Shown here one piece after another: positions 14,587 through 25,451 of a stretch of DNA of 25,451 nucleotides. Source of the stretch: a virus (taxonomy: Duplodnaviria; Heunggongvirae; Uroviricota; Caudoviricetes). The stretch lies in the IMG/VR virus record IMGVR_UViG_2711768005_000002; one strand, 5' to 3'. Within the stretch, counting starts at the first letter, position 1. Each line of letters begins with the position of its first letter. A model generated the notes under the pieces. That model saw only the letters and a program-made list of their open reading frames with translations, was not told the origin of the DNA and made no database searches. The position numbers and the translations under genes are program-made.

Positions 14587-15300
14587 TGCAGGATATCCGG
14601 CAGGAAACACTGAATGAATGCACCCGTGCGGAGCAGTCGGCCAGCGTGGTGCTCTGGGAAATCGATCTGACAGAGGTCGGTGGAGAACGTTATTTTTTCT
14701 GTAATGAGCAGAACGAAAAAGGTGAGCCGGTCACCTGGCAGGGGCGACAGTATCAGCCGTATCCCATTCAGGGGAGTGGTTTTGAACTGAATGGCAAAGG
14801 CACCAGTACGCGCCCCACGCTGNNNNNNNNNNNNNNNNNNNNNNNNNNNNNNNNNNNNNNNNNNNNNNNNNNNNNNNNNNNNNNNNNNNNNNNNNNNNNN
14901 NNNNNNNNNNNNNNNNNNNNNNNNNNNNNNNNNNNNNNNNNNNNNNNNNNNNNNNNNNNNNNNNNNNNNNNNNNNNNNNNNNNNNNNNNNNNNNNNNNNN
15001 NNNNNNNNNNNNNNNNNNNNNNNNNNNNNNNNNNNNNNNNNNNNNNNNNNNNNNNNNNNNNNNNNNNNNNNNNNNNNNNNNNNNNNNNNNNNNNNNNNNN
15101 NNNNNNNNNNNNNNNNNNNNNNNNNNNNNNNTCGCGGCGATGAGTGCGGTTATCACGGTCCGGCGGTCGCGGATGAATATGACCAGCCAACGTCCGACAT
15201 CACGAAGGATAAATGCAGCAAATGCCTGAGTGGCTGTAAGTTTCGCAATAACGTCGGCAACTTTGGCGGCTTCCTTTCCATTAACAAACTTTCGCAGTAA
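14586..15300 (+). CDS. L: tail tip assembly protein L (interrupted by N-run 14823-15131; frame not continuous across the gap)
   Basis: N-terminus MQDIRQETLNECTRAEQSASVVLWEIDLTEVGGERYFFCNEQNEKGEPVTWQGRQYQPYPIQGSGFELNGKGTSTRPTL and C-terminus RGDECGYHGPAVADEYDQPTSDITKDKCSKCLSGCKFRNNVGNFGGFLSINKLSQ both match lambda gpL, but the two parts are in different frames relative to the N-run. Confidence 0.8.
14823..15131. other. N-run (309 nt), unresolved or masked sequence inside L
   Basis: Run of n characters. Confidence 1.
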
Positions 15301-15305
15301 ATCCC

Positions 15306-16100
15306 ATGACAGAGACAGAATCAGCGATTCTGGCGCACGCCCGGCGATGTGCTCCAGCGGAGTCGTGCGGCTTCGTGGTAAGAACGCCGGAGGGGGAAAG
15401 ATATTTCCCCTGCGTGAATATCTCCGGTGAGCCGGAGGCGTATTTCCGTATGNNNNNNNNNNNNNNNNNNNNNNNNNNNNNNNNNNNNNNNNNNNNNNNN
15501 NNNNNNNNNNNNNNNNNNNNNNNNNNNNNNNNNNNNNNNNNNNNNNNNNNNNNNNNNNNNNNNNNNNNNNNNNNNNNNNNNNNNNNNNNNNNNNNNNNNN
15601 NNNNNNNNNNNNNNNNNNNNNNNNNNNNNNNNNNNNNNNNNNNNNNNNNNNNNNNNNNNNNNNNNNNNNNNNNNNNNNNNNNNNNNNNNNNNNNNNNNNN
15701 NNNNNNNNNNNNNNNNNNNNNNNNNNNNNNNNNNNNNNNNNNNNNNNNNNNNNNNNNNNNNNNNNNNNNNNNNNNNNNNNNNNNNNNNNNNNNNNNNNNN
15801 NNNNNNNNNNNNNNNNNNNNNNNNNNNNNNNNNNNNNNNNNNNNNNNNNNNNNNNNNNNNNNNNNNNNNNNNNNNNNNNNNNNNNNNNNNNNNNNNNNTT
15901 CATCGGTGCCGAATCATGCCGCCATTTACTGTGGTGACGGCGAGCTGCTGCACCATATTCCTGAACAACTGAGCAAACGAGAGAGGTATACCGACAAATG
16001 GCAGCGACGCACACACTCCCTCTGGCGTCACCGGGCATGGCACGCATCTGCCTTTACGGGGATTTGCAACGATTTGGCCGCCGCATCGACCTTCGTGTGA
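15306..16100 (+). CDS. K: tail tip assembly protein K (interrupted by N-run 15453-15898)
   Basis: N-terminus MTETESAILAHARRCAPAESCGFVVRTPEGERYFPCVNISGEPEAYFRM and C-terminus ...SSVPNHAAIYCGDGELLHHIPEQLSKRERYTDKWQRRTHSLWRHRAWHASAFTGICNDLAAASTFV match lambda gpK; true length unknown because of the gap. Confidence 0.8.
   Translation: MTETESAILAHARRCAPAESCGFVVRTPEGERYFPCVNISGEPEAYFRMXXXXXXXXXXXXXXXXXXXXXXXXXXXXXXXXXXXXXXXXXXXXXXXXXXXXXXXXXXXXXXXXXXXXXXXXXXXXXXXXXXXXXXXXXXXXXXXXXXXXXXXXXXXXXXXXXXXXXXXXXXXXXXXXXXXXXXXXXXXXXXXXXXXXXSSVPNHAAIYCGDGELLHHIPEQLSKRERYTDKWQRRTHSLWRHRAWHASAFTGICNDLAAASTFV
15453..15898. other. N-run (446 nt), unresolved or masked sequence inside K
   Basis: Run of n characters. 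Confidence 1.
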
Positions 16101-16729: not shown

Positions 16730-19700
16730 ATGGGTAAAGGCAGCAGTAAGGGGCATACCCCGCGCGAAGCGAAGGACAACCTGAAGTCCACGCAGCTGCT
16801 GAGTGTGATCGATGCCATCAGCGAAGGGCCGGTTGAAGGTCCGGTGGATGGATTAAAAAGCGTGCTGCTGAACAGTACGCCGGTGCTGGACAGTGAGGGG
16901 AATACCAACATCTCCGGCGTCACGGTGGTGTTCCGGGCAGGTGAGCAGGAGCAGTCACCGCCGGAGGGGTTTGAATCCTCCGGCTCCGAGACGGTGCTGG
17001 GTACGGAAGTGAAATATGACACGCCGATCACCCGGACCATCACGTCGGCAAACATTGACCGACTGCGTTTTACCTTCGGTGTACAGGCACTGGTGGAAAC
17101 CACCTCAAAGGGAGACAGGAATCCGTCTGAAGTTCGCCTGCTGGTTCAGATACAGCGTAACGGTGGCTGGGTGACGGAAAAAGACATCACCATTAAGGGC
17201 AAAACCACCTCGCAGTATCTGGCCTCGGTGGTGGTGGATAACCTGCCGCCGCGCCCGTTTAATATCCGGATGCGCAGAATGACGCCGGACAGCACCACAG
17301 ACCAGCTGCAGAACAAAACGCTCTGGTCGTCATACACCGAAATCATCGATGTGAAACAGTGCTACCCGAACACGGCACTGGTCGGCGTACAGGTGGATTC
17401 GGAGCAGTTCGGCAGCCAGCAGGTGAGCCGTAATTATCATCTTCGCGGGCGCATTCTGCAGGTGCCGTCGAACTATAATCCGCAGACGCGGCAATACAGC
17501 GGTATCTGGGACGGAACGTTAAAACCGGCATACAGCAACAACATGGCCTGGTGTCTGTGGGATATGCTGACCCATCCGCGCTATGGCATGGGGAAACGTC
17601 TTGGTGCGGCAGATGTGGATAAATGGGCGCTGTATGTCATCGGCCAGTACTGTGACCAGTCGGTGCCGGACGGCTTTGGCAGCACGGAGCCGCGCATCAC
17701 CTGTAATGCCTGGCTGACCACACAGCGCAAGGCGTGGGATGTGCTCAGTGATTTCTGCTCGGCGATGCGCTGTATGCCGGTATGGAACGGGCAGACGCTG
17801 ACGTTCGTGCAGGACCGACAGTCGGATAAGGTGTGGGCCTATAACNNNNNNNNNNNNNNNNNNNNNNNNNNNNNNNNNNNNNNNNNNNNNNNNNNNNNNN
17901 NNNNNNNNNNNNNNNNNNNNNNNNNNNNNNNNNNNNNNNNNNNNNNNNNNNNNNNNNNNNNNNNNNNNNNNNNNNNNNNNNNNNNNNNNNNNNNNNNNNN
18001 NNNNNNNNNNNNNNNNNNNNNNNNNNNNNNNNNNNNNNNNNNNNNNNNNNNNNNNNNNNNNNNNNNNNNNNNNNNNNNNNNNNNNNNNNNNNNNNNNNNN
18101 NNNNNNNNNNNNNNNNNNNNNNNNNNNNNNNNNNNNNTCAGCGTGGGTGCTGAAGGGCTTCGTCATGTACCGGGCGATGTCATTGAAATCTGCGATGATG
18201 ACTATGCCGGTATCCGCACCGGCGGGCGCGTGCTGGCGGTGAACAGCCAGACCCGGACGCTGACGCTCGACCGTGAAATCACGCTGCCATCCTCCGGCAC
18301 CACGCTGATAAGCCTGGTTGACGGGCAGGGGAATCCGGTCAGCGTGGAGGTCCAGTCCGTCACCGACGGCGTGAAGGTAAAAGTGAGCCGTGTTCCTGAC
18401 GGTGTTGCTGAATACAGCGTGTGGGGGCTGAAGCTGCCGACGCTGCACCAGCGATTGTTCCGCTGCGTGAGTATCCGTGAGAACGACGACGGCACGTATG
18501 CCATCACCGCCGTGCAGCATGTGCCGGAAAAAGAAGCCATCGTGGATAACGGGGCGCACTTTGACGGCGACCAGAGCGGCACGGTGAATGGTGTCACGCC
18601 GCCAGCGGTGCAGCACCTGACTGCCGAAGTCACCGCAGACAGCGGGGAATATCAGGTGCTGGCGCGCTGGGACACGCCGAAGGTGGTGAAGGGCGTGAGC
18701 TTCCTGCTCCGTCTGACCGTAACAGCGGATGACGGCAGTGAGCGGCTGGTCAGCACGGCCCGGACGACGGAAACCACTTACCGCTTCACACAACTGGCGC
18801 TGGGGAACTACAGGCTGACAGTCCGGGCAGTAAATGCGTGGGGGCAGCAGGGCGATCCGGCGTCGGTATCGTTCCGGATTGCCGCACCGGCAGCGCTGTC
18901 GCGGATTGAGCTGACGCCGGGCTATTTTCAGATAACCGCCACGCCGCATCTTGCGGTTTATGATCCGACGGTACAGTTTGAGTTCTGGTTCTCGGAAAAG
19001 CGGATTGCGGATATCAGGCAGGTTGAAACCACAGCACGCTATCTTGGCACGGCGCTGTACTGGATAGCCGCCAGTATCAATATCAAACCGGGCCATGATT
19101 ATTACTTTTATATCCGCAGTGTGAACACCGTTGGCAAATCGGCATTCGTGGAGGCTGTTGGTCAGCCGAGTGATGATGCATCCGGTTATCTGGATTTTTT
19201 CAAAGGCGAGATAGGGAAAACCCATCTGGCTCAGGAGCTGTGGACGCAGATTGATAACGGTCAGCTTGCGCCTGACCTGGCTGAAATCAGGACGTCCATT
19301 ACGGATGTCAGCAATGAAATCACGCAGACCGTCAATAAGAAACTGGAAGACCAGAGTGCGGCAATTCAGCAGATACAGAAGGTTCAGGTTGATACAAATA
19401 ATAACCTGAACAGCATGTGGGCTGTGAAGCTGCAGCAGATGCAGGACGGACGCCTTTATATCGCGGGTATTGGTGCCGGTATTGAGAACACCCCTGACGG
19501 CATGCAGAGTCAGGTGCTGCTGGCGGCGGACAGGATTGCGATGGTTAATCCTGCGAATGGCAACACAAAACCGATGTTTGTTGGTCAGGGCGATCAGATA
19601 TTCATGAACGACGTGTTCCTGAAACGCCTGACGGCCCCCACCATTACCAGCGGTGGAAATCCATCGGCATTTTCCCTGACTCCGGACGGAAAGCTGACCG

Positions 19701-20032: not shown

Positions 20033-20503
20033 NNNNNNNNNNNNNNNNNNNNNNNNNNNNNNNNNNNNNNNNNNNNNNNNNNNNNNNNNNNNNNNNNNNN
20101 NNNNNNNNNNNNNNNNNNNNNNNNNNNNNNNNNNNNNNNNNNNNNNNNNNNNNNNNNNNNNNNNNNNNNNNNNNNNNNNNNNNNNNNNNNNNNNNNNNNN
20201 NNNNNNNNNNNNNNNNNNNNNNNNNNNNNNNNNNNNNNNNNNNNNNNNNNNNNNNNNNNNNNNNNNNNNNNNNNNNNNNNNNNNNNNNNNNNNNNNNNNN
20301 NNNNNNNNNNNNNNNNNNNNNNNNNNNNNNNNNNNNNNNNNNNNNNNNNNNNNNNNNNNNNNNNNNNNNNNNNNNNNNNNNNNNNNNNNNNNNNNNNNNN
20401 NNNNNNNNNNNNNNNNNNNNNNNNNNNNNNNNNNNNNNNNNNNNNNNNNNNNNNNNNNNNNNNNNNNNNNNNNNNNNNNNNNNNNNNNNNNNNNNNNNNN
20501 NNN
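20033..20503. other. N-run (471 nt) covering the J 3' end, the J-lom intergenic region and the lom 5' end
   Basis: Run of n characters. Confidence 1.
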
Positions 20504-23900: not shown

Positions 23901-24031
23901 TCGGTATTGGTGCTCATACGCACTCTGTTGCGATTGGTTCACATGGACACACCATCACCGTTAACGCTGCTGGTAACGCGGAAAACACCGTCAAAAACAT
24001 CGCATTTAACTATATTGTGAGGCTCGCATAA
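20948..24031 (+). CDS. stf: side tail fibre protein Stf (mosaic; about 1027 aa)
   Basis: N-terminus [81 protein letters not shown] matches lambda Stf. Long Ala/Ser/Thr-rich low-complexity region, tandem fibre-repeat units, and a C-terminus with HxH repeats ending ...[31 protein letters not shown] as in lambda. ATG at 20948 preferred over the GTG at 20942. Confidence 0.9.
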
Positions 24032-24612
24032 TGGCATTCAGAATGAGTGAACAAGCACGGACCATAAAAATTTATAACCTGCTGGCCGGAACTAATGAAT
24101 TTATTGGTGAAGGTGACGCATATATTCCGCCTCATACAGGTCTGCCTGCAAACAGTACCGATATTGCACCGCCAGATATTCCGGCTGGTTTCGTGGCTGT
24201 TTTCAACAGTGATGAGTCATCGTGGCATCTCGTTGAAGATCATCGGGGTAAAACGGTTTATGACGTGGCTTCCGGCGACGCGTTATTTATTTCTGAACTC
24301 GGCTCATTACCGGAAAATGTCACCTGGTTATCCCCGGAAGGGGAGTTTCAGAAGTGGAACGGCACAGCCTGGGTGAAGGATACGGAAGCAGAAAAACTGT
24401 TCCGGATCCGGGAGGCGGAAGAAACAAAAAACAGCCTGATGCAGGTAGCCAGTGAGCATATAGCGCCGCTTCAGGATGCTGTGGATCTGGAGATCGCAAC
24501 GGAGAAAGAAACCTTGTTGCTGGAAGCTTGGAAAAAGTATCGGGTGTTGCTGAACCGTGTTGATACATCAACTGCACCGGATATTGAATGGCCAGTAGCA
24601 CCTATAGGGTAA
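24031..24612 (+). CDS. tfa: tail fibre assembly protein
   Basis: 193 aa, [78 protein letters not shown]... = lambda Tfa; start overlaps the stf stop (TAATG). Confidence 0.9.
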
Positions 24613-24698
24613 ATTCGTAATGATTACCTAAATACGTTATTCTTTTGTTAAAAAAGTGATTTTGCTATAGGTAGGGAGTATGTTCTTGGATTAAGAAT

Positions 24699-24729
24699 AA
24701 AAAATCGCCATGAAAGAGCTTCATGGCGA
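24699..24729 (-). terminator. Rho-independent terminator oriented for the minus strand
   Basis: Plus strand reads AAAAAA-TCGCCATGAA-AGAGC-TTCATGGCGA: a perfect 10-bp stem with 5-nt loop. On the minus strand the stem is followed by a T-run; on the plus strand no T-run follows. Confidence 0.6.
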
Positions 24730-25361
24730 GTACATAAACGTACAAAATGTGATGAAAGTAGAGTGGCGTAAGCCACTATATTAAGATATGACAATAGCGA
24801 AGAAAAGTAAATAACATTTTATGGACGTTTAATTGTTAATTATAAAAACTAGAGTGCCCGATATTGTTTATCTTGCTTTAAAATAATGTACTCAAACCAA
24901 ATTTTTGAGCTAAAAGCTCAAATAATATAAATGCAATAATAATGTTTAATAAGACAATTAGCTTGCTTTGTATTTTCATTTCGGAATACTGTTAAGTAAC
25001 TTTGATGACCCTAACAATAGATCGGAATTTTCTTAGAGTCAATGGTCACTGTTTTTGCTTGCAAAGCAAATGTTTTGGTGGTTATAAGTCGTCTTAATAT
25101 AGTCACGCATGCAACTTGTTCCATGCGGAGATTAAAGATTGGAATATAACGCGAAGATGGAATTAAATTACATTTGCAATAATTAATTTATTATTACTCA
25201 ATAATTACCGATATTATTATTGTAAATTAATCATTAGAATGCAAAAAGAAATGTAACGGCAAAATAAGAGGACGATAGCTGAGAAAAAAGCGTGCTTTCC
25301 CAATCTGGGGCAAATCACGTCTGAATGACACCTGAAAACAGGTGGTAGCCTCAAGAAGGCT

Positions 25362-25451
25362 GGTGATGCTGCCAACTTACTGATTTAGTGTATGATGGTG
25401 TTTTTGAGGTGCTCCAGTGGCTTCTGTTTCTATCAGCTGTCCCTCCTGTTC
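25362..25451 (+). mobile_element. insA: IS1 insertion sequence, left terminal inverted repeat and first 90 bp (continues beyond the window); insA begins with GTG at 25417
   Basis: GGTGATGCTGCCAACTTACTGATTTAGTGTATGATGGTGTTTTTGAGGTGCTCCAGTGGCTTCTGTTTCTATCAGCTGTCCCTCCTGTTC is the canonical IS1 left end, and MASVSISCPSC is the InsA N-terminus. Confidence 0.9.

Follow-up and report, generated by a model that had tools for sequence, protein, structure and literature searches.

A probable prophage-borne relative of the small membrane protein YncL in an AT-rich accessory module downstream of tfa

The phage accessory genes called morons (a concept of Hendrix and colleagues, with lom and bor of phage lambda as examples) and the small inner-membrane stress-response protein YncL of Escherichia coli K-12 (b4598; PF28073) are among the closest described counterparts of the locus reported here. 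The locus lies in a 25,451-nucleotide (nt) Caudoviricetes record (IMGVR_UViG_2711768005_000002; this whole stretch is the window below), in an AT-rich segment at positions 24613 to 25361, and it contains a minus-strand open reading frame (ORF) of 33 codons plus stop, ORF33 (24878-24979). Production of YncL causes sublethal membrane depolarization, a phage-shock response, and nucleoid condensation, sensitizes cells to pore-forming peptides, and lowers viability when it occurs early; heat shock and growth in minimal medium both raise yncL expression (PMC12542507). Depolarization, lowered viability, and nucleoid condensation on early production are the only YncL activities reported to date. In Salmonella, yncL is sigmaS dependent, with a short transcript first catalogued as small RNA (sRNA) STnc1110 (PMC5437024), and in vivo YncL is cleaved by RseP (PMC10470546). 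RIL-seq has identified chromosomal yncL as a target of KilS, a Rac-prophage sRNA from the 3' untranslated region (3'UTR) of kilR (PMC8175672), so that prophages and YncL are also connected by another route. YohP and other stress-induced E. coli small membrane proteins are, like the ORF33 peptide, single-helix proteins shorter than 50 amino acids (aa); YohP elicits the same sublethal depolarization, phage-shock response, and nucleoid condensation as YncL (PMC12542507), without sequence relation to the ORF33 peptide. Here, we report ORF33, whose product is very probably a diverged, prophage-borne YncL homologue, as judged by sequence comparison, and is apparently the first phage-encoded YncL relative to be noted here.

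The ORF33 product (MKIQSKLIVLLNIIIAFILFELLAQKFGLSTLF) is a predicted single-pass membrane protein. At E ≤ 10, its sole NCBIfam match was the YncL "stress response membrane protein" family (NF000537; E = 1.3e-5), spanning 28 of 30 profile positions. BLASTP against K-12 YncL (MNVSSRTVVLINFFAAVGLFTLISMRFGWFI) gave 11/28 identical (39%) and 18/28 positive residues (E = 2e-7), collinear over residues 1 to 28, and the common positions include M1, S5, K/R6, V9, L10, N12, A16, L19, F20, L22, K/R26, F27, and G28. Specificity was controlled with 8640 distinct ORFs of 20 to 80 aa drawn from all collected loci: YncL as the query recovered the four ORF33 variants only (17 to 18.6 bits; next best, 8.6), and the best non-self match of ORF33 in this set was YncL (reciprocal best hit), so that the significant collinear similarity is specific among small ORFs. 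Precomputed Pfam assignments on metagenomic gene calls of the exact peptide also named YncL (PF28073:YncL, weak). Both proteins are about 30 aa long with a single hydrophobic segment of transmembrane length: ORF33 has 33 aa, a grand average of hydropathy (GRAVY) of 1.51, and a best 19-residue Kyte-Doolittle window of 2.54, and YncL has 31 aa, a GRAVY of 1.34, and a best window of 2.15. Other searches added little. Our own Pfam search of ORF33 gave no match and was uninformative, as the same Pfam copy misses K-12 YncL itself; PHROGs and PADLOC held no meaningful match for ORF33; tblastn against phages missed the peptide even in phages that carry it, presumably through low-complexity filtering, and was uninformative too; phmmer against 1.84 billion representatives returned just the peptide itself and a frameshift variant; and the locus did not surface in literature searches that covered the peptide, the phages by name, and small membrane proteins encoded next to tfa.

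Each of the two genes sits on a short monocistronic minus-strand unit, in different surroundings. K-12 yncL lies between patD and ortT, whereas ORF33 directly follows tfa in lambdoid prophages; because the patD-yncL-ortT synteny is absent, ORF33 is a paralogue or xenologue of yncL and not an orthologue. K-12 yncL also has a Shine-Dalgarno motif (AAGGTGG) that ORF33 lacks, whereas ORF33 extends five residues further at the C terminus (LSTLF) and is followed by a long, conserved 3'UTR that ends in a canonical terminator.

Copies of the locus were collected from E. coli genomes, IMG/VR contigs, and metagenome contigs and yielded 35 distinct haplotypes, down to ~78% identity. One haplotype (L036), interrupted by the insertion sequence IS1, was set apart, leaving 34 uninterrupted haplotypes, and ORF33 was intact with exactly 33 codons in all 34. 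Indels were present in the flanks and absent from ORF33, and its variable sites fell 8:2:13 on codon positions 1, 2, and 3. The most diverged lineage was represented by a ~78%-identical copy (L008), from which ORF33 differs by 18 nt substitutions that result in five conservative amino acid changes; with the same 18 substitutions placed at random, five or fewer changes had a probability of 6e-5. The aligned haplotypes thus show purifying selection on ORF33 at the protein level, and we hold with high confidence that ORF33 is a genuine gene. Its start is unambiguous, since an in-frame TAA lies five codons 5' of the ATG (24979) with no intervening start codon.

An initial annotation, made from the letters of the window, had singled out this peptide as one of two hydrophobic 33-aa minus-strand candidates, both of which exist as written, and had compared them with small membrane peptides while warning that ORFs of this size arise by chance in AT-rich DNA. 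For the first peptide, the suggestion of a small membrane protein was borne out, by a gene under selection. The warning holds for the number of small ORFs, as the segment has seven of at least 30 aa and composition-matched random sequence has 4.1 ± 1.8, and 3% of random sequences yielded an ORF as hydrophobic as the first peptide; it does not hold for ORF33 itself, whose conservation pattern clearly exceeds chance. Three other small ORFs were considered. A 37-aa ORF (complement 25011-25124, annotated in PhiR70_1) and a 48-aa ORF (complement 24648-24794) are broken by stops or frameshifts in diverged copies and are not genes, and a plus-strand 24-aa ORF (24710-24784) was likewise rejected, as all four of its L008 substitutions, read from the alignment, alter the amino acid.

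The second peptide of the initial annotation (complement 25217-25318) did not survive comparison: it crosses a mosaic junction at 25276/25277, and the other prophages that have the right-hand module all lack its hydrophobic C-terminal half; nor does the peptide have a homologue. It is nested in a 52-aa TTG-start ORF (25375-25217) that crosses an IS1 junction (45 aa if confined to the segment).

ORF33 sits in a candidate leftward transcription unit. A consensus scan of the minus strand upstream of the ORF33 ATG gave TTGACT-17-TATTGT as the best promoter-like site (25042-25014; -35, TTGACT at 25042-25037; 17-nt spacer; -10, TATTGT at 25019-25014). The -35 hexamer is kept in nearly all haplotypes (TTAACT in L009 and TTGATT in L022), the -10 hexamer is TATTGT or TATCGT, and the sequence around the hexamers is only ~75% identical overall. 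A C at -13 (CTATTGT or CTATCGT) is always present and is the only hint toward sigmaS-type expression. From the putative transcription start, a 5' untranslated region of ~27 nt is predicted.

Downstream of the ORF33 stop codon, a 148-nt 3'UTR (complement 24730-24877) leads to an intrinsic terminator (complement 24699-24729). On the minus strand, positions 24729-24705 read TCGCCATGAAG-CTC-TTTCATGGCGA and are followed by TTTTTT (the U6 tract, 24704-24699); the hairpin was an 11-pair stem with a 3-nt loop in the scan and 10 pairs with a 5-nt loop in the fold. The stem is invariant in all haplotypes, with changes confined to the loop or the closing pair. No T-run follows the hairpin at 24705-24729 on the plus strand, and the terminator therefore works for leftward transcription only, as the initial annotation had stated; its proposal of a leftward unit ending at this terminator fits the conservation pattern. 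The terminator-proximal half of the 3'UTR (24730-24782) consists of a stem-loop (24779-24764) and an AU-rich linker and is, together with the terminator, the most conserved stretch of the module: identity to L008 is 0.87 to 1.0 in 30-nt windows starting at 24690 to 24759 and 0.5 to 0.6 at 24808 to 24870. Of the two additional hairpins listed in the initial annotation, both are present; the one at 24764-24779 is this stem-loop, and the other (24905-24921) falls within the coding part of ORF33, where neither L008 nor L009 preserves it. A 25-nt inverted repeat (24762-24786 and 25092-25116) was put down to chance and is likewise not maintained in L008. Upstream of the candidate promoter, a patch at 25061-25165 is 87 to 93% identical to L008 (30-nt windows starting at 25071 to 25159) against ~78% overall; no ORF in it survives in diverged copies, and it is possibly a regulatory region or a longer leader.

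Several points weigh against reading this locus as an expressed YncL-like gene. The NCBIfam score of 25.0 bits is below the curated cut-off of 35 bits. Only four peptide variants are known, all from E. coli or E. coli-like phage contigs, and the selection test mainly rests on one deep divergence, that of the L008/L010/L032 lineage. Rare disrupted alleles exist, namely, a frameshift variant (P0003) and the IS1-hit L036, in which an independent IS1 lies at ~12583 (equivalent to ~24733 of the window) and separates the terminator hairpin from the remaining 3'UTR. The candidate promoter is a 9/12 consensus match, which is at chance level in AT-rich DNA (five found, 3.5 expected), and the leader (...CAGUAUUCCGAAAUG) has no Shine-Dalgarno motif, as the initial annotation had said of this peptide. 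With the L036 insertion, IS1 has struck this AT-rich module twice.

ORF33 had no annotation in any RefSeq or phage record inspected, likely because its score falls under the NCBI family cut-off, and this argues for a lower YncL family cut-off or an extra model in annotation pipelines.

The segment is a mosaic. Its GC content is 31.5%, compared with 48.5% in tfa (tail fiber assembly protein, 193 aa; plus strand, 24031-24612; named from annotated relatives) and 55.4% in stf (side tail fiber gene), and it holds no ORF of at least 60 aa on either strand; both points had been made in the initial annotation. Megablast against 5426 complete E. coli genomes split the segment into three pieces, of which the first, an AT-rich block (30% GC; 24613 to ~25190), carries the YncL-like unit on the minus strand. 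The left boundary of this block is the tfa stop codon, and in every locus inspected it starts exactly at a tfa-type stop codon. The block was present in 831 of the 5426 complete genomes (~15%) and in 4 of 50,697 phage records (mEp332, PhiR70_1, and two records of ev099, all lambdoid phages); no species-representative genome had it when genome contigs were scanned for the conserved 3'UTR pattern.

Downstream of the block, four contexts were found: an AraC-type gene, ydfJ, sitD, and sit loci with a tfa stub. In the closest relatives of the window, a YdeO/GadX-like AraC regulator gene follows and adjoins the lambda attachment site, in Qin-like prophages ydfJ follows, and at other loci the sit operon follows; homology to the Qin-like and sit contexts stops at ~25190. 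Because the start at the tfa stop is constant but the downstream neighbors vary, the block is, on the evidence of these alignments, a discrete cargo module tied to tail-fiber cassettes. A stub of ~100 bp from the 3' end of another tfa follows the module in Qin-like L005 and in sit-linked L008 and L010, which suggests that a tail-fiber cassette with the module replaced an older cassette via recombination within tfa. This second-tfa stub is frameshifted in all three (L005, 4580-4680; L008, 4546-4645; L010, 4587-4686).

Morons are extra genes between conserved phage genes with deviant composition, a terminator, and variable presence, and the ORF33 unit resembles them in each respect. It has its own conserved terminator (minus-strand hairpin plus U6, 24729-24699), deviant composition (30% GC versus 48 to 55% in tfa and stf), and presence or absence at a fixed position; for a promoter of its own, there is the TTGACT-17-TATTGT site, kept across lineages, which is a consensus match alone. 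Typical morons are larger than the ORF33 unit, which is also unannotated. The orientation opposite to the late operon, the candidate promoter, the terminator, and the composition would all fit the moron pattern of lysogen-expressed accessory genes.

Taken as a whole, the segment is probably a leftward, YncL-like moron unit followed by right-end debris that IS1 has cut. The moron, a compact phage accessory gene at 24613 to ~25190, would be read leftward against the tail genes. A sigma70/sigmaS-like promoter (25042-25014) would give an RNA of ~310 nt composed of the ~27-nt leader without a Shine-Dalgarno motif, the 33-codon ORF (24979-24878), and the 148-nt 3'UTR, and ending with the conserved stem-loop, the AU-rich linker, and the intrinsic terminator (24729-24699), which would halt transcription 87 to 92 nt before tfa. 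The peptide presumably inserts in the inner membrane as a single helix and, by analogy with YncL and YohP, might partly dissipate the membrane potential or otherwise change membrane physiology. Expression from the prophage may be independent of late transcription.

That a prophage holds such a copy, complete with a candidate promoter and its own terminator, points to temperate phages carrying peptides of this kind as accessory genes for expression in the lysogen, and ORF33 provides a natural second family member for YncL structure-function work. Very small proteins are routinely overlooked, and ORF33 is unannotated yet present in ~15% of complete E. coli genomes. The locus is a useful case of missed annotation and a starting point for work on small proteins and possibly sRNAs rather than a new kind of system.

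The alternative that survives best, although it is unlikely, places the function mainly or additionally at the RNA level and is compatible with the YncL-like unit. The last ~90 nt of the predicted transcript (the stem-loop at 24779-24764, the linker, and the terminator) would be freed as an Hfq-type 3'UTR-derived sRNA that regulates host or phage mRNAs, with the peptide secondary or additional. These ~90 nt are the most conserved in the module, with ~94% identity to L008 (five differences in ~86 nt) versus 82% in ORF33 and 50 to 60% in the rest of the 3'UTR. They have the architecture of an sRNA (a U-tract terminator, an upstream stem-loop, and an AU-rich linker, conserved above their surroundings), and a 97-nt 3' piece folds into stem-loop, linker, and terminator at -27.1 kcal/mol (z = -6.7). 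Two one-sided substitutions in the stems pair as G-U on the minus-strand RNA only. There are also precedents, as the Salmonella yncL transcript was first listed as an sRNA, STnc1110 (PMC5437024), and prophage 3'UTR-derived sRNAs such as KilS exist (PMC8175672); like the predicted ORF33 transcript, these are short RNAs whose structured 3' end is conserved and closes with a U-tract terminator. Against this, the stems are simply invariant, with no compensatory covariation (0 pairs changed on both sides), and the high identity could stem from recombination tracts, as breakpoints between lineages are located near 24700. Nothing at the locus pointed to an internal promoter, to processing, to Hfq binding, or to a target. 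An Rfam search (E ≤ 1) of 24000-25451 and of an intact relative returned just IS009 within tfa and tRNA-like fragments, with no family match in the segment. The initial annotation had listed an sRNA locus among its candidate identities; the 3' end looks sRNA-like and is most conserved, and covariation and an Rfam match are lacking.

The narrower proposal of a dual-function locus, with a depolarizing YncL-like peptide and a 3' end released as an Hfq-type sRNA acting on host transcripts, is decidedly unlikely. If it were true, prophages in ~15% of E. coli strains would have a hidden handle on membrane energetics and gene regulation, for example in dormancy, superinfection, or stress tolerance.

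It is very unlikely that the entire segment is non-coding, as a decayed b-region spacer or an H-NS-bound upstream region of the AraC-type (YdeO/GadX-like) gene with ORFs by chance. The AT-rich composition does run on through the AraC-type gene in relatives, the small-ORF count is within chance, ORF33 is annotated in no inspected record, and 25191-25361 does look like non-coding leftover. However, the 24613-25190 block moves independently of the AraC-type gene, standing beside ydfJ or sitD elsewhere, and ORF33 combines purifying selection at the protein level with YncL homology. The decayed b-region remnant proposed in the initial annotation therefore applies to 25191-25361 and not to 24613-25190, and its suggestion of host DNA gives way to phage accessory DNA, though a host serU remnant follows in IS1-free relatives.

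A type I toxin-antitoxin locus, also proposed there, would pair a 33-aa hydrophobic membrane toxin with an antisense or partly complementary sRNA that checks it. In its favor, the ORF33 peptide combines small size and hydrophobicity with a weak translation signal, and its homologue YncL depolarizes the membrane and lowers viability when produced early (PMC12542507), which gives the proposal a functional basis. The known type I toxins (TisB, Hok, Ldr, Ibs, ShoB, ZorO, and DinQ) are likewise small hydrophobic inner-membrane peptides. The searches of Rfam and for type I toxins that the initial annotation had proposed gave, respectively, nothing in the segment and, in NCBIfam at E ≤ 10, YncL only and no known type I toxin family. 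No direct repeats suggest a complementary RNA of the IstR, OhsC, or AgrB type; in diverged copies the -35 of the sole promoter-like site on the plus strand (24788-24817) is lost, and no terminator follows on that strand. With a peptide that matches no type I toxin model, no recognizable antitoxin RNA (repeats, a conserved plus-strand promoter-terminator pair, and Rfam matches were sought; a fully overlapping antisense RNA could escape sequence analysis), and a chromosomal relative, yncL, that is not classed as a toxin-antitoxin system, this identity is highly improbable. Overall, the observation of the initial annotation is confirmed and its interpretation is partly supported.

The two right-hand pieces of the segment are a filler at 25191-25276 (24% GC), found in the lineage in which the AraC-type regulator gene is next, and the initial 85 bp of a lambdoid prophage right-end module at 25277-25361. 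The latter module occurs by itself in hundreds of genomes; many lambdoid prophages, among them those of O157:H7 and ST131, have it at their right ends, and in relatives that lack IS1 it leads into the 3' half of the tRNA-Ser gene serU and flanking DNA. The serU 3' half is the remnant of an old attachment-site junction; a tRNA-Ser is annotated there in phage SerU-LTIIb. The stretch 25191-25361 appears to be non-coding leftover of the phage right end (the b region with the old serU attachment junction). The module with the serU 3' half and ~300 bp of flank recurs at prophage right ends regardless of the current integration site (L003, 5862-5928 and flanks; L006, 3990-4210; L007, 3990-4560), and in L006 direct repeats of ~100 bp flank it, with a 168-nt coding sequence for a "capsid protein" annotated at one of them.

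The right edge of the segment (25361) is an exact IS1 junction. From 25362 to the window end (25451, plus strand), the left end of IS1, with the terminal inverted repeat and the start of insA, is 100% identical to IS1 ends in >5000 plasmids annotated with an IS1 family transposase, and the identical junction occurs in 79 complete E. coli genomes. As the window ends within IS1, the extent of the replacement was read from L143 (4713-5480), one of these genomes, in which IS1 has taken the place of 550 bp of the intact arrangement (L003, 5750-6299), the serU remnant among them. No target duplication is present there, and 207 bp separate the end of IS1 from the downstream YdeO/GadX-like AraC gene. 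The IS1 in L143 could alter expression of this gene.

The IS009 match (RF02111, Rfam type "Gene"; 218 bits) covers 24374-24572 on the plus strand, entirely within the tfa coding sequence, and tfa remnants, not a genuine RNA gene, were probably the source of the family. The tail-gene region of the window contains four runs of N (masked or unresolved), at 14823-15131, 15453-15898, 17846-18137, and 20033-20503. A scan of IMG/VR with a degenerate ORF33 N terminus added only an unrelated family of 30-aa ORFs (MKIQSKFICLKCEMELRKEDFFEPYRSMMK), which occurs with conservative variants in >60 viral contigs (L070 to L142, mostly from metagenome 3300045988) and surfaced solely via the common N-terminal MKIQSK.

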